Part shown: positions 4,587 to 48,053 of the stretch, in pieces
Layout of the letters: the number at the start of each line of letters is the position of its first letter
Position numbering within the stretch: position 1 is the first letter of the stretch
Assembly (NCBI GenBank): GCA_002327685.1
Contig: DCXN01000003.1
Location: forward strand, 6,981 to 70,980
Length of the DNA stretch: 64,000 nucleotides
Source of the DNA: Patescibacteria group bacterium UBA2135
GTDB lineage: Bacteria; Patescibacteriota; Minisyncoccia; Phycocordibacterales; UBA2135
Reading direction: 5' to 3'
Notes under the pieces: generated by a model
Told to the model about the DNA's origin: nothing
What the model saw: the letters and a program-made list of their open reading frames with translations, nothing else
Database searches by the model: none
Position numbers and translations under genes: made by a program

Positions 4587-4900
4587 TAAAAATCATCACC
4601 CCCTCACTCGAAAATTAATTGGAAATGCTTCTTTTTATTCTCCTCTTTAAACTAATAAGAGCCCCCGCTCTTCGCTTAATTTGCCGTTCTCTTTCACGAG
4701 CATCCTGTTCTGATTTATACGCTTCATAATACACAACATCAAATGGCTTTCTATTTTCTGTTGATGACACATTTCCATTATTATGTTCTTTCACTCTTTT
4801 CTGTAAATCACTGGTATATCCAAAATATAAATCTTTATCTTTCAATGATTGTAATGTGTAGAAAAAGAACATAATAATTAATTTTCGAGTGATGGGGGTT
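4587..4900. mobile_element. Small element bounded by 24-bp terminal inverted repeats and carrying a GIY-YIG nuclease gene
   Basis: Left end CACCCCCTCACTCGAAAATTAATT (4587-4610). Right end AATTAATTTTCGAGTGATGGGGGTT (4876-4900). The same inverted repeats bound the non-coding element at 26880-27034. Confidence 0.55.
4615..4872 (-). CDS. GIY-YIG nuclease superfamily protein
   Basis: FFFYTLQSLKDKDLYFGYTSDLQKRVKEHN matches the GIY-x10-YIG...R...E...N pattern. 85 aa. Confidence 0.7.
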   Translation of the reverse strand: MFFFYTLQSLKDKDLYFGYTSDLQKRVKEHNNGNVSSTENRKPFDVVYYEAYKSEQDARERERQIKRRAGALISLKRRIKRSISN

Positions 4901-15863: not shown

Positions 15864-15884
15864 ACGCAGGGCCGGGCCTTGCGG
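15864..15884. repeat. REP-like half-element (family-1 arm) downstream of the RAYT gene
   Basis: ACGCAGGGCCGGGCCTTGCGGG. Confidence 0.6.
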
Positions 15885-16054: not shown

Positions 16055-16891
16055 TTATACCACAGTCACCCGTTGTTCTTGTTCTTGTTCTTGTGTTTGT
16101 TGCTGTGATTGTGTGCTTTCAATGTCTTCAGCACCTTCAGCATCTTTAACGTCTTCAACAATCTCAATCCGCGCATCTGCCTGCATATCCACCCTCCCCT
16201 CCTCACCCTCCAATTCAAGAATCTCTTTACTATACGTCAACCACGCGTTGATAAATTCATCAAATTCAGCAAAATCCTCAAAATATTCAGGGAAAAATTC
16301 TTTAGCGTTACTGACAATAGCGCCCTCCGGACGTACTTTCCCGATGAAATCCAAATAGCTTGAATAGTCATAATGCAAAAGCTGTGTGCGAGCTTCTTGC
16401 AGATTTTGAATACCTTTTTCTTTCCATGTTGAGTCAACTAGTTTCACCGGATTTAAATGAATATATGCAAAAAGATATCTCAAGTAATTATCGTGGATGG
16501 CGCGTTTTGACTTAAATCTGCCCTCAAACAACGTACCAGAACGTTCATATTTCGTATTGAAGTACATTGAATACGCCGTCATCAATTTTTGCATGAATCG
16601 TGAAATACCGTTTGGCTGTATTTGTCTTATGAGAATGTGAAAATGATTGGGCATCAAGCAATACGCGCCAATCGCCACAAGAGGTTTTCGTCGTGAAAAC
16701 ATTTTAAGCAATTCAGAAAAAGAAAGCGTTCTTAGAACTTCCATCCTAATTTCACTTTCACCATTACACACATACAATAAACGCATAAAACGATCATAAT
16801 CTTCCCTTTTGAGAAAAATATCACGCTTATCAACACCTCTATTATAGAGATGATAAAATTCATTTTCTGCAAATTGTTCTTTACGAGCCAT
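16055..16891 (-). CDS. REP-associated tyrosine transposase (RAYT; IS200/IS605-like Y1 HUH transposase)
   Basis: YHLYNRGVDKRDIF...AYCLMPNHFHILI (the HUH motif) ...GTLFEGRFKS...YLRYLFAYIHLNPVK (the catalytic Tyr). REP-like elements lie on both sides. Confidence 0.75.
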   Translation of the reverse strand: MARKEQFAENEFYHLYNRGVDKRDIFLKREDYDRFMRLLYVCNGESEIRMEVLRTLSFSELLKMFSRRKPLVAIGAYCLMPNHFHILIRQIQPNGISRFMQKLMTAYSMYFNTKYERSGTLFEGRFKSKRAIHDNYLRYLFAYIHLNPVKLVDSTWKEKGIQNLQEARTQLLHYDYSSYLDFIGKVRPEGAIVSNAKEFFPEYFEDFAEFDEFINAWLTYSKEILELEGEEGRVDMQADARIEIVEDVKDAEGAEDIESTQSQQQTQEQEQEQRVTVV

Positions 16892-16957: not shown

Positions 16958-17031
16958 CCCCCGCAAGGCCCGGCCTTGCAAGTTATCCACAGGTTATCCC
17001 CCAAAAACCTCTCTCAAGGCCGGGCCTTGCA
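16958..17031. repeat. REP-like element, family 1, inverted variant (copy 9)
   Basis: CCCCGCAAGGCCCGGCCTTGCAAGTTATCCACAGGTTATCCCC...CAAGGCCGGGCCTTGC. The central part is the reverse complement of GGGGATAACCTGTGGATAA. Confidence 0.7.
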
Positions 17032-18471: not shown

Positions 18472-19665
18472 TTACGGAGTTTCACACAAACCTGCCTCTA
18501 TGACAAGGTCAAAGAAATTATCTGTTTGAGAAGCGGGGGTAGTGGTTGCATAGATCCTTACTACCGCACCGTCAGTTGTTCTCATTTGAATACAAGTTCC
18601 AGTATTTGCTGCCCCAGCGTGGAGGCGCAATGTCGTCGTTCCAACAGTACCACCGGCAGAAATGTCACCGTTTACCCCAAGTTTCGCGCCGATATCAGGA
18701 GTTGAGGTTCCTACACCAAGCATGCTACCAAAAGTATTACCACCAAGGGTTGTTGTCGCAAATGTGTCAGCAATTGAAACAGTTGTCGTCGCGTATCCCG
18801 CAACATCAAATGATAATCCTCTTACTGTAAACGCATTTGACGTCGTCGCGTTGCCAGTAATAATAATCGCATCTCCCACAGCATCACCGAGGGTAACCGC
18901 ACCATTTAACGTGGTGTTACCAGTAACGGTTAAAGTACCTTCTGTTTGAATATTACCTGTTGAACCTGAAGTAGTCGCGTATCCGGAAACAACAAGAGCA
19001 TCAGCGACAAGAGCAGTTGTTGACAGCATAGTGGTAGAGGCATTCCCTATTGTATCAATAGAAAACACTTCAGTTTGTAAATAATTGTACGCGTTCAAGA
19101 GATTCCCACCGTATGCACCCTTTCCCATAATGACAAGTGGCACAGATGCTGATGTTGTCGCGTTCACATGCAAAATTGCATTTCCACTATCAACTTCTGT
19201 AACAGGAAGAGTTGATGTTCCAAGCGCCATGTAGCCAGTTGCAATGGTATTAAACCGAACCCCCCTAGAAGCGCCGAGAACGAGTCCCTCGCTTGATGTG
19301 GTAGACGCAACAGTTCTCCAATCCACCCCATCATAAACTTTGATGACACGGTCATCGCTATCAAAGAAAATTGCGCCTGTTGCATCAGCCGTTGGATTTG
19401 CAGCTTGTGACAAAAGAGTAACCTGGTCATAGAAAAATGCCTTACCGGTTACAGCAAGAGTACTAGTTGCAAATACACTTCCAGCTGTTGTCACATCTCC
19501 GGTTAACGTTGATGCGCCGCTAACGGTTAACGTTCCGCCAGTGTTAATGTTTGTACTGATAGTTGTCGCACCATTTACCATTATTGCGACAAATGCAAAT
19601 GAAATAACGACCGCGAGTAATACTGAATAGAAATTTCTATTCGTTAATAATTTTCCCATACTCAT
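18472..19665 (-). CDS. Membrane-anchored Thr/Gly/Ser-rich repeat surface protein (beta-helix-like)
   Basis: N-terminal transmembrane segment, then low-complexity T/G/S/A-rich repeats. 397 aa. Confidence 0.5.
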   Translation of the reverse strand: MSMGKLLTNRNFYSVLLAVVISFAFVAIMVNGATTISTNINTGGTLTVSGASTLTGDVTTAGSVFATSTLAVTGKAFFYDQVTLLSQAANPTADATGAIFFDSDDRVIKVYDGVDWRTVASTTSSEGLVLGASRGVRFNTIATGYMALGTSTLPVTEVDSGNAILHVNATTSASVPLVIMGKGAYGGNLLNAYNYLQTEVFSIDTIGNASTTMLSTTALVADALVVSGYATTSGSTGNIQTEGTLTVTGNTTLNGAVTLGDAVGDAIIITGNATTSNAFTVRGLSFDVAGYATTTVSIADTFATTTLGGNTFGSMLGVGTSTPDIGAKLGVNGDISAGGTVGTTTLRLHAGAANTGTCIQMRTTDGAVVRIYATTTPASQTDNFFDLVIEAGLCETP

Positions 19666-19867
19666 AATGTAACTTTTGAACGCCCAGAAGCGTTCTTAAT
19701 ATTAGAAAGCTAATAATAACTAATAAAAAAGACCTTTAAATTAAGTGACCAATTACTACAGTAAGGAACGCACATATCTTTTAAAAAAGATATACGCACA
19801 GATTACTTCTCATTATTATATAATCTTACTGTAAAGACTCCTAAAAAAACACTGTGGATAACTTCCA

Positions 19868-20065
19868 AAAATTAGGGAGTCCTCCGACCCGAGTCGGAGG
19901 ATGACCATAATTTTTGCGAACCCCCACACCTTTCAAACCGTTGTTTTGCGAAGCAATATCACTATAATTTGAAAAACCAACTTCGTGAGCTATTTTGGCA
20001 CAGAGCGTTTTTTAACAGCAAAACGAAAGCTACGGTTTGAAAGGTGTGGGGGTAATAAAAACATA
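19868..20065 (+). ncRNA. Candidate structured small RNA or MITE-like element with a 21-bp perfect inverted repeat
   Basis: CCTCCGAC-CCGA-GTCGGAGG hairpin, then AACCCCCACACCTTTCAAACCG ... CGGTTTGAAAGGTGTGGGGG enclosing ~95 nt with nested stems. No ORF. A TATAAT-like box at 19819-19824 upstream and a bidirectional terminator at 20118-20152 downstream. Confidence 0.3.
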
Positions 20066-20117
20066 GCCGCTTCACTCCTTATCTTTATTAGCTTTCGTGC
20101 TTTCTACTCATAGCAAA

Positions 20118-20152
20118 AGCACCCCGCCTTACACAGGCGGGGTGCTTTTGTA
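20118..20152. terminator. Bidirectional rho-independent terminator
   Basis: GCACCCCGCC-TTACACA-GGCGGGGTGC flanked by an A-run and a T-run. Lies downstream of the 20165-20869 gene on the minus strand. Confidence 0.65.
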
Positions 20153-20164
20153 AAAGTCTAAACG

Positions 20165-20869
20165 TCAATGGTCAATGGTTGCGCGTAGCGCAGCTTTAAG
20201 CATTTCATCATCCGGAATCTCTGAAATCCCTTTTTCAAGTATACTCTTCGCTTTTTCAGTGCTATCCATCACTTCCACATAAAAATCAGCTATTTGCACA
20301 TAAAGATACGGCAATTTTGGGTCATTTTCAAGCGCTTTCAGGTAGTTTTCCTCCGCAAGAACCGGATTTTGAAGATAATAACCATACAAAACACCTAGAT
20401 TGCCAAACGATAGTGAGTTTTGTGGCCGTATAGCACCTGCGTATTCCCAAACTTGCCGCGCTCCTTCGTAATCTTCAATAGATTTGCGCAAAAGACCCAA
20501 ACCAAGCCATTGATTAAACAAATCAGCGTCTTGCCTCAAAAGTGCAATAATATTCTCTATTTTGTTGGTTATTTCCTCTTTCTGCTCCAAAGAATATGAA
20601 TCTGGGATAATGATCCCCCCATCTAAATCTGGTATGTTAGGCAAAATAACCGCATCGCCTCCATCTTCCGCCCCCACTTCAACAATTTCCACCACTGCAT
20701 CTTCCACTTCTTCCACTAACGTGTTAACAGGTTGCTCTTCAGATAATACTGACGTAGCAACAAAGTCATCTCTCACCATCAGGTCAGTATATATAAAGTA
20801 GCCAATAAAACCTCCTAAAGTAAGCACAATAAGTGCTATAAATATGTTGTTTTTGTTCATGTTAAACAT
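20165..20869 (-). CDS. Membrane-anchored TPR-repeat protein
   Basis: N-terminal transmembrane segment (NIFIALIVLTLGGFIGYFIY), acidic linker, TPR-like repeats. Start placed at the internal Met at 20869 because the 5' extension runs into REP copy 10. Confidence 0.55.
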   Translation of the reverse strand: MFNMNKNNIFIALIVLTLGGFIGYFIYTDLMVRDDFVATSVLSEEQPVNTLVEEVEDAVVEIVEVGAEDGGDAVILPNIPDLDGGIIIPDSYSLEQKEEITNKIENIIALLRQDADLFNQWLGLGLLRKSIEDYEGARQVWEYAGAIRPQNSLSFGNLGVLYGYYLQNPVLAEENYLKALENDPKLPYLYVQIADFYVEVMDSTEKAKSILEKGISEIPDDEMLKAALRATIDH

Positions 20870-20909
20870 ATTATACCTAACAAATTGATTTACGCAACAC
20901 TCATACTCA

Positions 20910-20950
20910 CCCCGCAAGGCCCGGCCTTACATGGGGATAACCTGTGGATA
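20910..20950. repeat. REP-like element, family 1 (copy 10, left arm plus centre only)
   Basis: CCCCGCAAGGCCCGGCCTTACATGGGGATAACCTGTGGATAG. Confidence 0.65.
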
Positions 20951-24822: not shown

Positions 24823-25829
24823 AGTTTAAGTTGTTTACACATATTACTCAGATTACTTAGTTTAGAGTGATATATGTTTAATACAATTTTTTACTAACAA
24901 TAAATTAGCTGATAAAGGGTTTCGAGACATGCTCTAACCCCGCGAATAAACTTGTGAACAAATTCAGTGTTCACAGCAAGATAATAAATTTAAAGTGTGA
25001 GTTGTGTAAAATGCGAATGAACATTTTACAACATTTGCACTCTACACAACTCACACAACGATATGTATTTCCACTTCGATCACCGCACACAATAAATGAT
25101 TGGCAATTATAAGCGACGTAGAGCGAGCGCAATCTAAAAGACGAAACGAAGTGGAGTTTTTCAGATTGCCAAGCCGAGGAGCTTATACAAGACGAAGTGC
25201 TTTTATTTTCGACTATTTTCGACCTTTGCTATTTCTCTGTTTTTGAGTGGCAACATACCACTCGACCATTCATTAATTTTAATTTCAGATTTAAGATTTC
25301 AGATTAAATTAAATAAATTTGCAATTTAAAACTTGCAATTATTTTAATTTCTTTTCATTCGGTATCTTTATTTAATTGTCAAAGTGCGCGTACCTATTCT
25401 TTCAATCTTCAAGTATCTTAATTCATTCTACTCACACTCCTATTTCAACCAACCCCAAAAGGGTTACAAGTTACAGAAACTACAGAAAAAATCAGCGCGT
25501 ATTTTTCGCATCAATACTTTTCCATTTCCTACACATTATTATAATACGAATACAATAATGCACAATAATGTTGTACAAAAAAACTGTGGATAACTTCACC
25601 ATTTTTTCGCAACAACTAGTAAGTTATATTACCTCAAAATAAAGGAAAAATACCTTGAAATTATATAGATTTGTGGGATAATTAATTTCAGATTTATGAT
25701 TTAAGATTTATGATTTTGGGAATTTTAGATTTACGATTTTCGATATATGATTTATGCCTTGCGTGATGTTTTACGCGTCGCTACCATTTTCGTCTTTGTT
25801 CGTAAATCTTATATCATATATCTTAAATC
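24823..25829. promoter_or_regulatory. About 1-kb ORF-poor AT-rich upstream region of the giant surface protein gene, with inverted and tandem repeats
   Basis: TTGTGAACA-N7-TGTTCACAG palindrome near 24957-24982. GTGTGAGTTGTGTAAAATG...CATTTTACAACATTTGCACTCTACACAACTCACAC inverted repeat near 24996-25060. AGATTTATGATTT-like tandem repeats at 25680-25760. ATTTCAGATTT repeats near 25290-25320. Confidence 0.4.
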
Positions 25830-26654
25830 TTAAATCAGCGTATACCTACTCCACCGTCTCTCCCCTATACGACTCACTTTCCCTAAGCGTATCAAAGACA
25901 TAAGTTCCCGCTGAATTGTCTTTTCACTACATTCAGAAATAATTTCAGAAATGTCTTTTATATTCGCCTCACCTCTCGTGCGAATTACTTTTAAAATCAT
26001 ATCCCGACGCACTCCCTTTTTCCCTGTCAATGACACATTGTCACTGTTATTGCTGGGGCTCTGCGAGCAAGACACCTTCTCACGATTAGTCCCCTGTTCA
26101 GTATCATAAAGGACATTTCCATCTGCTTTTTGTCCTTTATGATATTGTCTTTTATTTTGTCCTTTATCTAGAGTGTTTGATACCTCGAAAAGATCTTTTG
26201 AAAGAAAAAAGTTGTCAACAATACTTTGGGTTGATAATTGCGCGTGCAGTATGTCATACAATGTACTGTATTCTGACTGCAAAATTGAATAATTCATACG
26301 AGAAATAAGACGTATAGATAGACCTAGCCTCAAAAGAGACATCGTTTCTGAAAGAATAGGAAGTATATCTACAATAATATGTTCTTTTTTGGTTGCAGAA
26401 GAAGCGCTGGAAAAAAGTGTTATAAGAGACAAAAAATGAACAGCTTTCTCTCTAATCTCCCATTTAAATGGTTCTTTAAAATTCAAAAAGTCAGTAATCA
26501 TATAAAGCGCTGTGGTTAATTTTTCTGCCTTTTTCGCCACAAACAACATTTGTTCGTTATATTGTATTAAACCAAGCCTTGATATGCCTTGTTTGTCATT
26601 ATTGTGATATCTCTGCTTCTGGTTGTCTTTTTGATGTCTTTCATTTGAATACAT
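25830..26654 (-). CDS. Putative transcriptional regulator with a C-terminal winged-HTH
   Basis: C-terminus ...ILKVIRTRGEANIKDISEIISECSEKTIQRELMSLIRLGKVSRIGERRWSRY is DeoR/GntR-like wHTH. 274 aa. Confidence 0.45.
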   Translation of the reverse strand: MYSNERHQKDNQKQRYHNNDKQGISRLGLIQYNEQMLFVAKKAEKLTTALYMITDFLNFKEPFKWEIREKAVHFLSLITLFSSASSATKKEHIIVDILPILSETMSLLRLGLSIRLISRMNYSILQSEYSTLYDILHAQLSTQSIVDNFFLSKDLFEVSNTLDKGQNKRQYHKGQKADGNVLYDTEQGTNREKVSCSQSPSNNSDNVSLTGKKGVRRDMILKVIRTRGEANIKDISEIISECSEKTIQRELMSLIRLGKVSRIGERRWSRYTLI

Positions 26655-26879: not shown

Positions 26880-27034
26880 CCCCCCTCACTCGAAAAATTA
26901 TTGACGACGTAGAGCGAGGTAAATGGACGGGAAAGGTCTGACCTTGAGGAGGAGCGAAGCGACGGGAGAAGGTCGGACCTTGCGGAGTCCATTTGCCGAG
27001 CCGAGGAGTTAGTAACTTTTCGAGTGAGGGGGTG
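26880..27034. mobile_element. Non-coding MITE-like element with the same inverted repeats as the GIY-YIG element, carrying a family-2 repeat core
   Basis: Inverted repeats CCCCCTCACTCGAAAA (26881-26896) and TTTTCGAGTGAGGGGG (27017-27032) enclose GACGGGAAAGGTCTGACCTTGAGGAGGAGCGAAGCGACGGGAGAAGGTCGGACCTTGCGGAGTCCATTTGCCGAGCCGAGGAG. Confidence 0.55.
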
Positions 27035-27072: not shown

Positions 27073-29355
27073 ATGACAAGAAAATACAAAAAAAGACGCG
27101 GGAAATCTTCTTTCCTGCCCGCATTAAAAGAAGAGACGCGGCGCTTCATATTCTCAATCCTCTCGTTTGTTATCGCGATCTTTTTTCTGCTTGCATACGC
27201 TAATCAAGCTGGAATTGTAGGAGAATCAATACGAAACATATTCAACAAATTCTTCGGTGTCGGATATTTCCTCTTTCCCGCCTTTCTCGTAGGAGCTGGT
27301 ATAGTATTTCTTTCAATAAAACGCACACATATTGCCGCGGCAACTTTTTTAGGCGGTCTTTTATTTCTCACATCCGGCCTTGCGCTAATCAGCACATTCA
27401 ATAGTGAGGCTGGAGGCATTGTGGGAGCGATACTCTCTTCTCCTTTTGTCGCACTCTTTGATACATTTGCCACAAAAGTGATCCTTATCGCTTTACTATT
27501 CGTCTCGTTACTAATCTTATTTGACGCAACCCCTACAAAGATTATTTCCTCTCTCTCCGAGCTGGCAAACTGGTTAAAAAATTTGGTGAGCAGAAAACAG
27601 GAATCACTAGATTCTGATGAATACGAGGAAGATGAAGACGGTGAAGAGGGTGAATATGATGATGAGGAGTATGATGAAGAAGACGAGATAGAGGCACAAG
27701 ACGAATCGGAAGGAGAGACTACGCACAAAGAAGACGCCGAGAAACGTACTGCGCCTTTTGCGCAAACACTATCGCAAACCAAAGAAAACATTCTTTCATT
27801 CGTACAGGCTACCTCAAAAGAGTACACTCCTCCCCCACTATCGCTTTTTGAAACAGACAAAGGCAAACCTGATGTTGGAGACATAAAAGCAAATGCGAAT
27901 ATTATCAAAAGAACGCTTCAACATTTTGGTATAAATGTTGAAATGGACGAGGTGTCTATCGGTCCATCAATTACACGTTACGCGTTAAAACCGGCACAAG
28001 GAGTAAAACTTTCCCGCATTATAGGACTTCAAAACGATCTATCGCTCGCGCTTGCGGCACACCCTCTTCGCATTGAAGCACCAATACCTGGAAGATCTTT
28101 AGTCGGTATTGAAATACCAAATAATAAAAAAACTATCGTTGGTCTTGGTTCACTTCTAAAATCGCCTGAAATAAAGAAAACATCTGCTCCACTTGCGTTT
28201 CCTATCGGACGCAGTATTACAGGAAATCCAATTGTCGGAAACTTAAACAAAATGCCGCACCTGCTAATCGCCGGAGCAACTGGTGCGGGAAAATCGGTTT
28301 CCCTGCACACGATTATTACATCGTTACTCCACCGTAATGCACCTACAAACCTTAGGATTATCATGGTAGACCCTAAGCGAGTAGAATTGACACTCTATAA
28401 CAATATCCCACATCTTCTGACACCAGTCATCACCGATCCTAAAAAGGCAATTTTAGCACTCAAGTGGGCCGGCAAAGAAATGGATCGCCGATATGATGTT
28501 TTAGAAGCAGAATCAGTACGCGATATCGCTTCATATCATAAAAATGTTGTTGAACCTGCTTATGCAGAACAAGCGCAGAACAAGCGCGGAACAAGCGCGG
28601 CGGAACAAGAACAAGAACAGGAAGTAAATCCACTACCAGAAACAATGCCGTATATTGTTGTCATCATTGATGAGCTAGCGGATATTATGAATCTATATCC
28701 ACGAGAACTTGAGTCAGCAATTGTACGCATTGCGCAGATGGCGCGCGCTGTAGGTATTCATCTCATTCTCTCAACACAACGACCACAGGTAAACATCATC
28801 ACCGGACTAATTAAGGCAAACATTCCAACACGCATCGCGCTTCAAGTCGCTTCACAAACCGACTCAAGAACAATTCTTGACATGGGTGGTGCCGAGAAAC
28901 TCTTAGGTTCCGGTGACCTACTCTATCTTTCAAGTGAGATGTCAAAACCGGTACGTCTGCAATCTGCCTATATCGGAGAATCAGAAATAAAGAAGATAAC
29001 TAAATTTCTCGCAAAGCAAAACAAAGACGGTAAATTTGATGTTGACGTACACATTAACTCTCCCAAGAAAGACGTATTATTTGAAGCAAACCTTGAAGAA
29101 AATCTGGAGGACAAAGAAGGCACCGAGGAAGATGAATTGTATGAAGATGCCCGGGAAATCGTCATTCAAAGCAAAAAAGCATCAACAACGTACCTTCAAC
29201 GAAAATTAAGAATTGGATACGCTCGCGCGGCGAGCATCATGGACATGCTTGAAGAGCGCGATGTTGTAGGGCCCGCGGAAGGATCCAAGCAAAGAGAGGT
29301 ATTAATATCCGCTGGTGAGGAGACAGATTATGATGATGAAAACGAAAGTATTTAG
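27073..29355 (+). CDS. ftsK: DNA translocase FtsK/SpoIIIE
   Basis: N-terminal transmembrane segments, an acidic linker (EYEEDEDGEEGEYDDEEYDEEDE), Walker A GATGAGKSV, and a C-terminal gamma winged-helix TTYLQRKLRIGYARAASIMDMLEERDVVGP. Confidence 0.9.
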   Translation: MTRKYKKRRGKSSFLPALKEETRRFIFSILSFVIAIFFLLAYANQAGIVGESIRNIFNKFFGVGYFLFPAFLVGAGIVFLSIKRTHIAAATFLGGLLFLTSGLALISTFNSEAGGIVGAILSSPFVALFDTFATKVILIALLFVSLLILFDATPTKIISSLSELANWLKNLVSRKQESLDSDEYEEDEDGEEGEYDDEEYDEEDEIEAQDESEGETTHKEDAEKRTAPFAQTLSQTKENILSFVQATSKEYTPPPLSLFETDKGKPDVGDIKANANIIKRTLQHFGINVEMDEVSIGPSITRYALKPAQGVKLSRIIGLQNDLSLALAAHPLRIEAPIPGRSLVGIEIPNNKKTIVGLGSLLKSPEIKKTSAPLAFPIGRSITGNPIVGNLNKMPHLLIAGATGAGKSVSLHTIITSLLHRNAPTNLRIIMVDPKRVELTLYNNIPHLLTPVITDPKKAILALKWAGKEMDRRYDVLEAESVRDIASYHKNVVEPAYAEQAQNKRGTSAAEQEQEQEVNPLPETMPYIVVIIDELADIMNLYPRELESAIVRIAQMARAVGIHLILSTQRPQVNIITGLIKANIPTRIALQVASQTDSRTILDMGGAEKLLGSGDLLYLSSEMSKPVRLQSAYIGESEIKKITKFLAKQNKDGKFDVDVHINSPKKDVLFEANLEENLEDKEGTEEDELYEDAREIVIQSKKASTTYLQRKLRIGYARAASIMDMLEERDVVGPAEGSKQREVLISAGEETDYDDENESI

Positions 29356-29432
29356 TATCTGGTATTTAGTATTTAGTATACGATTAAATTTTTTTATACT
29401 AGATACTAGATACTAAATACTTGATACCCATG
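29341..29432. repeat. AT-rich inverted-repeat region built from ATACTAAATAC / GTATTTAGTAT units
   Basis: GTATTTAGTAT x3 followed by ATACTAGATACTAGATACTAAATAC. The same unit family occurs at 33781-33875. Confidence 0.5.
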
Positions 29433-34434: not shown

Positions 34435-34444
34435 ACCTTTAATA

Positions 34445-34534
34445 CCTACAACATACAACTAACAACCTACAACTTAAAACCGATTGTGTTGATTGCTAGT
34501 CACCAGTTGTTAGTTGTTAGTTGTATGTTGTTGG
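34445..34534. promoter_or_regulatory. Long hairpin (29-bp arms) between rpsR and the sigma factor gene
   Basis: CCTACAACATACAACTAACAACCTACAAC ... GTTGTTAGTTGTTAGTTGTATGTTGTTGG. Confidence 0.5.
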
Positions 34535-34723
34535 TTATTTTGAGACATACGGCAAAAAACCCATAAAACGAGCTCGTTTCACCGCTTCAGAAATTTTTCT
34601 CTGATTGCGAGCGCTCACTTTTGTATATTTCTTTGAGACAATGCGAGCATGCAAATTAATATACTTTTTCAGCGTCTCAGTGTCCTTATAGTCTATATAT
34701 TTTAAGTTTGTGGCGTTATTCAT
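34535..34723 (-). CDS. rpsR: 30S ribosomal protein S18
   Basis: ...YIDYKDTETLKKYI...ARNQRKISEAVKRARFMGFLPY. Start taken at the internal ATG, which has a GGAGCGAAGGAAC RBS. Confidence 0.8.
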   Translation of the reverse strand: MNNATNLKYIDYKDTETLKKYINLHARIVSKKYTKVSARNQRKISEAVKRARFMGFLPYVSK

Positions 34724-47862: not shown

Positions 47863-48053
47863 CCGCCAGGTCTGGCCTTGAGGAGGAGCGGAGCCGAGTC
47901 TGACTCGGCGCAGCGACGGGAAAAGGCCGGACCTTGCGGAACGGTTTTTTCTAATTTGCAGACCTTGAGAAAAAAACTGTGCAGCCAGGTCTGGCCTTGA
48001 GGAGGAGCGAAGCGACGGGAAAAGGCCGGACCTTGCGGAACAGTTTTCCGCAG
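47863..48053. repeat. Family-2 GC-rich repeat array (two large units)
   Basis: CCAGGTCTGGCCTTGAGGAGGAGCG(G/A)AGC...GACGGGAAAAGGCCGGACCTTGCGGAAC(G/A)GTTTT x2, one unit with an inserted CCGAGTCTGACTCGG hairpin. Confidence 0.8.

Follow-up and report, generated by a model that had tools for sequence, protein, structure and literature searches.

The window analysed here, a stretch of 64,000 nucleotides (64 kb), belongs to a Parcubacteria (CPR) chromosome: it encodes FtsK, RecA, an HtrA-like protease, MetRS, ProRS and L10, and the proteins encoded around the repeat described below have relatives in Parcubacteria and Patescibacteria MAGs. The repeat sits in the gap between a TPR gene (20165-20917, minus strand) and a gene for a 397-aa protein (18472-19665, minus strand). 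Relatives with a TPR protein of 56-67% identity keep the gene order around it (1200-aa protein, TPR protein, gap, ~400-aa protein, PG-binding protein, Y1_Tnp), and their gaps retain the terminator, the anchor GAAAGCTAATAA, the DnaA-box motif GGAAGTTATCCACAG, a TATAAT box and the downstream gene's leader; the repeat is missing. Almost nothing lies between the anchors GAAAGCTAATAA and GGAAGTTATCCACAG in two relatives (L005 and L008), and a third (L002) has a ~125-nt block at the syntenic site that holds a short degenerate hairpin. Since the relatives keep the anchors without the repeat, the ~218-bp block between them in the window (about 19868-20085), which comprises a cassette and the modules on both of its flanks and is missing or replaced at the relatives' syntenic site, is specific to the window's genome; the limits drawn earlier from the letters, 19868-20065, come close to it.

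The sequence-only reading had noted a DnaA-box-like motif and a downstream bidirectional terminator beside the element. Both features exist: the terminator is a perfect 16-bp hairpin (20114-20150) that serves the TPR gene, and a perfect DnaA box lies within CTGTGGATAACT at 19852-19863, recurring at 25584-25595 and additionally at 16981-16992. Because both are conserved in relatives that lack the element, we assign them to the host's intergenic region and not to the element. In these three places the motif reads AGTTATCCACAG with the box TTATCCACA (minus strand in the first two, plus strand in the last), and it also occurs in L002, L005, L008, L014, L045 and L018. It lies 26-39 nt upstream of TATAAT boxes, its syntenic spot is conserved in relatives without the repeat element, and it may be a promoter-proximal site for DnaA or an activator; these sites are probably not oriC, because the window contains no GC-skew switch.

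Two further features of the gap are shared with the relatives. A 12-nt long-range complementary pair, GAAAGCTAATAA and TTATTAGCTTTC (19705-19716 and 20085-20096, 368 nt apart), bounds the intergenic region and is found in all syntenic relatives, with a compensatory double change in L008 (GAAAGCTGATA and TATCAGCTTTC); the ~218-bp block is inserted right beside one partner of this pair. The start codon of the 397-aa gene, whose product looks secreted, is preceded by a leader of the form TATTAGCTTTCTAATATT-AGAACG-(hairpin)-CGTTCAAAAGTTACAT (19666-19760, minus strand), which is conserved in all relatives (L002, L005 and L008), is matched by no Rfam family, and could be a cis-regulatory element.

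Architecture of the inverted repeat and its flanks

At the core of the block is a 134-nt palindromic element (19920-20053, assigned to neither strand) with the ends A-CCCCC-A-CAC...GTG-T-GGGGG-T. Its arms form the perfect 21-bp inverted repeat that had been noticed at the outset: the left arm (19920-19940) is ACCCCCACACCTTTCAAACCG, the right arm (20033-20053) is its exact reverse complement, the spacer is 92 nt, and the arms can be extended to 28 nt at 93% identity. With up to three mismatches allowed, the arm occurs in the 64-kb window at these two positions only (0.01 expected), and folding against shuffled controls gave z = -7.45 for the plus strand and -6.30 for the minus strand. Two nested stems had been proposed inside the repeat, of which the helix between GTTTTGC (19943-19949) and GCAAAAC (20018-20024) is real, its 7 pairs being invariant in all copies, but CGAAG and CTTCG, complementary as they are, take part in no predicted fold. 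A 33-nt stretch (19920-19952, in minus-strand reading) is invariant in all five copies, marine and groundwater ones alike, and this conservation of the interior between the two settings could mean that the sequence itself is functional.

The 134-nt element is noncoding, with no conserved ORF and with small ORFs that differ in frame between copies. A small ORF starting via the SD-like TAAGGAGT was rejected on these grounds, some copies having no start codon at all. Neither the plus strand (GGGGGTAATAAAAAC) nor the minus strand (GGGGGTTCGCAAAAA) has a T-run directly after the stem, and a terminator scan around the element calls just the neighbouring hairpins. Nothing lies antisense to 19920-20053, which leaves the idea of a regulatory antisense element unsupported. 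No Rfam family matched: the whole window gave 0 matches at the gathering threshold, and a search at E <= 10 over 19650-20200 returned terminator-driven sub-threshold noise and nothing else, which argues against 6S, SRP and Y RNAs, known ribozymes and similar families. A tRNA/tmRNA scan of the window found none, and blastn against a phage database gave no match. Two other structured elements were considered and rejected: a retron ncRNA, because no reverse transcriptase is encoded nearby, and an integron attC site, because the RYYYAAC/GTTRRRY ends are missing and the stem is perfect, without extrahelical bases.

On its left the cassette is preceded by a module (19872-19919, plus strand) consisting of TTAGGGAGT (19872-19880), the hairpin CCTCCGAC-CCGA-GTCGGAGG (19881-19900) and, 8 nt before A19920, the box CATAAT (19906-19911); the upstream hairpin and the TATAAT-like box of the sequence-only reading are thereby both located. 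Read on the minus strand, the module is a hairpin followed by ACTCCCTAATTTTT and resembles a terminator. It also precedes CCCCC in L014, L015 and L016. To the right of the cassette is a weaker inverted copy (20054-20085, minus strand) of the form ATAAGGAGTG...CTATGT...TTATTA, which reads towards the cassette. Across the copies, the sequence leading up to most arms consists of TAAGGAGT, a spacer or hairpin that varies, GAC, TATAWT, 8-9 nt and then A-CCCCC; other arms have GAGCA plus a hairpin before them. Comparison of filled with empty sites shows that the flank module belongs to the inserted block. The module is found upstream of the interior in either orientation, an arrangement that would fit either an originally symmetrical, longer palindrome or an interior that flips between the arms.

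Copies in other contexts

We scanned metagenome contigs with a 20-mer of the arm and found the ~134-nt element, arms and interior both, in at least four other intergenic contexts on marine and groundwater contigs. One copy lies between dnaB and recR (L014, with a matching copy in L041); another, in L015, is next to a recA-like gene and forms a tandem with a short variant with the same CCCCCACACCTTTC ends but a 32-nt interior; the copy on a contig from Hainich groundwater (L017), 74% identical, lies between secG-like and substrate-binding-protein genes; and that in L016 is at a contig end. Assemblies break inside the element in L016, L043 and L044, and assembly breaks happen at repeats. This is not the picture of arms that occur at one place only, in a locus that is a generic terminator in relatives.

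The window and L041 very likely come from one MAG, because one block of accessions (MAG12249-MAG12884) contains the TPR and GIY-YIG proteins of the window as well as the RecR of L041, which suggests that the element is present at two or more loci of a single genome; the window and L041 copies are 89% identical. With the element (L041), the dnaB-recR gap measures 242 nt; relatives with an 88%-identical RecR lack the element and have a gap of 31 nt, so that, together with the TPR locus, a presence/absence comparison finds the element absent from relatives at two loci. In L042, which comes from another sample and has an identical RecR gene, a different CCCCC cassette occupies the same right-hand junction: L042 1-230 and L041 5680-5975 share an identical right-hand flank, GGGGG-TGCTCAATG..., and carry a 79-nt cassette (arms CCCCCTCACACG) and the 134-nt element, respectively. 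The pattern resembles a swap of cassettes, within one population, at a fixed junction.

Searches farther afield were negative. The GTDB representative genomes, a set that does not contain the window's genome, gave three single-arm matches at chance level in unrelated phyla; viral contigs matched neither the invariant 28-mer nor the two-arm GIY-YIG cassette pattern; and a covariance model of four copies found no further diverged copies in the 162 kb searched. Neither the five copies nor the comparison of filled with empty sites, in which the relatives are diverged and the junctions are not base-precise, reveals a direct repeat that would represent a target-site duplication, and no transposition event or excision footprint was seen.

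Cassettes that share the same ends

The window holds three cassettes with the ends A-CCCCC-W-CAC...GTG-W-GGGGG-T, at 19920-20053, 26880-27033 and 4599-4897. The cassette at 26880-27033 (no strand assigned) lies directly upstream of ftsK, carries the same TATAAT module, and has the arms CCCCCTCACTCGAAAA (25 nt at 88%) around a 102-nt noncoding interior with a nested CCGCAAGGTCCGACCTT...AAGGTCAGACCTT palindrome. That at 4599-4897 (minus strand), upstream of rplJ, has the arms CCCCCTCACTCGAAAATTAATT (22 nt at 95%) around a gene. This ORF (4615-4872, minus strand) encodes an 85-aa single-domain GIY-YIG nuclease (Pfam PF01541, E = 1.3e-15, spanning residues 2-69, with no further domain), whose nearest solved structures are the UPF0213 proteins 1ZG2 (E = 2.8e-7) and 1YWL. 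The arms fit the ORF tightly: its stop codon overlaps one of them and its start codon is 3 nt from the other.

Homologues of the GIY-YIG protein, 58-77% identical, occur across Parcubacteria. In three further contexts, one upstream of rplJ, one within a PrgI/TraC cluster and one between T2SSF and a pilin gene, perfect 17-22-bp ACCCCC[T/A]CACTC[G/A]AAAA repeats enclose the homologue and abut its start and stop codons. In a fifth context the boundary of a 60%-identical homologue is degenerate, and a 20-bp CCCCCACAC hairpin with an intact CCCCC lies beside it, so that perfect flanking arms of 17-22 bp are found in four of the five distinct contexts. Family arms diverge past the first ~10 nt and retain their complementarity, as in L033, where T/A and G/C positions have changed on both sides. 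The arms of 19920-20053 have just these first ~10 nt, ACCCCCACAC, in common with the GIY-YIG cassettes, and the family includes noncoding members with unrelated interiors.

Between the hosts of the window and of L018, identity is 74-75% for the GIY-YIG protein, whereas it is 25% for L10 and 50% for L7/L12, a disparity for which horizontal movement of the cassette would be a fitting explanation. In both hosts the GIY-YIG cassette is directly upstream of rplJ (window 4599-4897, L018 1479-1774), and the shared placement suggests horizontal insertion with a site preference.

A second family of palindromic repeats is present in the window, with 36 matches versus 0.06 expected. It consists of CCGCAAGGCCCGGCCTT ... 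AAGGCCGGGCCTTGCGG doublets ~46 nt apart (240/286, 2006/2052, 3365/3411, 6335/6381, 7279/7325, 7962/8008, 14137/14183 and 16965/17016), with singles at 15868 and 20916 and variants at 47923/48022 and inside 26880-27033; the doublet spacer usually contains two DnaA-box-like 9-mers, for example GGGGATAACcTGTTGATAAAC or GTTATCCACAGGTTATCCCC. Copies lie on both sides of a RAYT-like Y1_Tnp gene (16055-16891), the classic REP/REPIN-RAYT layout.

Origin of the element and comparison with known systems

A ~134-bp noncoding cassette has the inverted repeat as its terminal stem and, with its flank modules, makes up the ~218-bp block. The Parcubacteria-specific family to which it belongs has coding and noncoding members with shared ends, occupies multiple intergenic sites, varies in presence or absence between close relatives, and keeps its arms complementary though diverged. 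We favor, with a probability of about 0.68, the reading that 19920-20053 is a non-autonomous, MITE- or REPIN-like palindromic cassette of a GIY-YIG-associated Parcubacteria family. Such a cassette would be spread or maintained in trans through the hairpin that its arms form in single-stranded DNA, and the GIY-YIG nuclease would be the likely partner, by analogy with Ssn and its NTS/SRM hairpins and with RAYT and REPINs. We infer this link between the nuclease and the noncoding cassettes solely from the ends that they share; to our knowledge, mobilisation of DNA by a lone GIY-YIG nuclease is without precedent, and the protein is not an established transposase. Once inserted, the cassette probably gives rise to a stable hairpin RNA by transcription from the -10-like box that stands 8-9 nt before the stem; this RNA may be a by-product, or may serve as an RNA-end protector or processing site.

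The hairpin RNA might instead be the product itself (a decoy, guide or regulator), encoded by a true small-RNA gene family with a -10 box and a terminator-like hairpin, whose copies move by ordinary rearrangement. We regard this as unlikely, although several features suit it. A TATAAT-like box stands 8-9 nt upstream of A-CCCCC in most flanks; downstream of the element there is a terminator-like hairpin (19877-19890) on the minus strand, and the bidirectional terminator on the plus strand; and the constant distance of the box, with these hairpins, makes transcription on either strand plausible. Both arm transitions (L014 and L017) would give U.G on the minus strand and C.A on the plus strand, and the minus-strand consensus has 97.0% paired cells, three pairs in which both partners have changed, and a score that 5 of 500 shuffles reach, compared with 95.7% and 28 of 500 on the plus strand. 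This strand difference in arm wobble and consensus structure, drawn from four sequences, is a hint and no more: the covariation comes from only four full sequences, in which 19 of the 22 outer pairs never vary. The 33 invariant nucleotides in marine and groundwater copies would also suit an RNA gene, but close relatives do without the element at two loci, the promoter-like module stands upstream of the interior in both orientations, the same ends can also bound an ORF or unrelated interiors, assemblies are interrupted within the element, and Rfam has no match even at E <= 10.

It is very unlikely that the element is a REPIN moved by the RAYT-like Y1 transposase encoded nearby (16055-16891). 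The gene is 3 kb away in conserved synteny, its product belongs to PF01797 (E = 6.6e-8) with weak similarity to REP-associated tyrosine transposases, and the element is REPIN-like in consisting of a spacer between two inverted arms, with an overall length of about 130 nt. The similarity (39.8 bits) is below the NCBIfam cut-off of 80, however, and since a separate repeat family flanks the Y1 gene, this gene is an unlikely driver of the CCCCC cassettes: the repeats at its sides are not CCCCC arms but AAGGCC(C/G)GGCCTT doublets (15868 and 16965/17016), the layout expected of its own REPs, and CCCCC arms enclose GIY-YIG genes in every context examined. A locus-specific structure that is not a repeat (a terminator, attenuator or protein-binding palindrome), or a chance palindrome, has next to no probability; the element does lie in an intergenic gap between a terminator and a promoter, but its stem has no T-run on either strand, it recurs elsewhere, chance would yield 0.01 occurrences of its arm in the window, and it is absent from relatives that retain the flanking terminator and promoter.

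Of the earlier proposal of a small RNA or MITE, the MITE-like half has held up, through recurrence elsewhere, absence in relatives and termini in common with coding cassettes. The element is short and noncoding (134 nt), has 21-bp perfect terminal arms and occupies at least two loci in an apparent single MAG, while the corresponding sites of relatives are empty or filled differently. Since neither a target-site duplication nor a DDE transposase partner was seen, we do not class it as a classical MITE. Classical MITEs share their ends with an autonomous, transposase-encoding IS; here the ACCCCCWCAC ends are common to cassettes that encode just the GIY-YIG nuclease. Correia/NEMIS elements of Neisseria and similar MITEs (ERIC, RUP, RPE) are intergenic elements of 100-160 bp near genes, with terminal inverted repeats of ~26 bp; they are strain-polymorphic, can carry promoter-like boxes and can be transcribed into hairpin RNA. 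The present element resembles them in size class, terminal inverted repeats, intergenic location, polymorphism and promoter-like boxes. Correia elements duplicate a TA target, and we know of no dedicated enzyme gene with the same ends; here, in contrast, no duplication is visible and the ends are common to GIY-YIG cassettes.

In its logic the element comes closest to the Ssn/NTS and REPIN/RAYT systems. In the Ssn system of ~90-aa GIY-YIG-only ssDNA nucleases, the gene is flanked on both sides by inverted repeat copies, additional copies are scattered in intergenic regions and around genes, and the authors themselves remarked on the IS-like repeat-gene-repeat architecture (Chenal et al., Nat Commun 2025, PMC11893778); the main text of that paper makes no mention of Patescibacteria. 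The likeness lies in a single-domain GIY-YIG protein of ~90 aa (85 aa here), a repeat-flanked gene and more repeat copies in intergenic regions. Each SRM, however, is a self-contained hairpin of 20-50 nt, whereas here two flanking arms pair across a gene or other cargo, and the nearest solved relatives of the 85-aa protein are UPF0213 proteins. The SRM consensus HGTCWY..YYVSBRH..WNVSBRG..RNCYNB has 0 matches in the window versus 0.18 in shuffles, which places the CCCCC cassettes outside the published SRM class; the only, loose, NTS lookalike is the hairpin at 19873-19905 (GGTCAT + stem + ACTCC, minus strand). With the REPIN/RAYT system (Bertels and Rainey 2011, PMC3116915) the cassettes share the form of non-autonomous, intergenic inverted-arm doublets with a spacer (~100-130 nt) that make long hairpins, the tie to a small single-copy nuclease or transposase gene flanked by the same repeats, and the maintenance of arm complementarity. 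They differ in that the partner is a GIY-YIG nuclease and not an HUH/Y1 transposase, that the window's RAYT-like gene (16055-16891) is flanked by its separate family, AAGGCC(C/G)GGCCTT, instead of CCCCC arms, and that the GIY-YIG cassette looks horizontally mobile and not strictly vertical.

Small and streamlined as CPR/Parcubacteria genomes are, this 64-kb window holds two palindromic repeat families, each adjoining a small nuclease gene of its own. Pairings of this kind, of palindromic repeats with a small nuclease gene, are already known; the GIY-YIG-linked CCCCC family is undescribed, and the literature searched contains no description of such palindromic cassettes in CPR bacteria. If the GIY-YIG gene drives the CCCCC cassettes, the Ssn story of repeat-nuclease pairs would extend to CPR, the 85-aa enzyme would have a testable substrate in a stem based on ACCCCCWCAC, and the Ssn authors' suggestion of a present or past mobility of repeat-ssn-repeat units would gain backing; interest in the element would rise from moderate to high if the 85-aa nuclease moves the cassettes.

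A bolder proposal, possible though we doubt it, is that the ACCCCC...GGGGGT units are new minimal mobile elements: a long hairpin stem around nothing but an 85-aa GIY-YIG (Ssn-like) nuclease, which would move the hairpin by way of an ssDNA intermediate, with horizontal spread across very divergent Parcubacteria and noncoding derivatives that include 19920-20053. They would then be the smallest self-contained bacterial mobile unit known, and the first case of a lone GIY-YIG nuclease acting as a "transposase".

In practical terms, the CCCCC repeats break metagenome assemblies (L016, L043 and L044) and could pass for sRNA genes in CPR annotation. Intergenic regions elsewhere in the window contain long imperfect palindromes or tandem-like AT-rich inverted repeats, at 34444-34535, 29346-29428 and 25691-25837.
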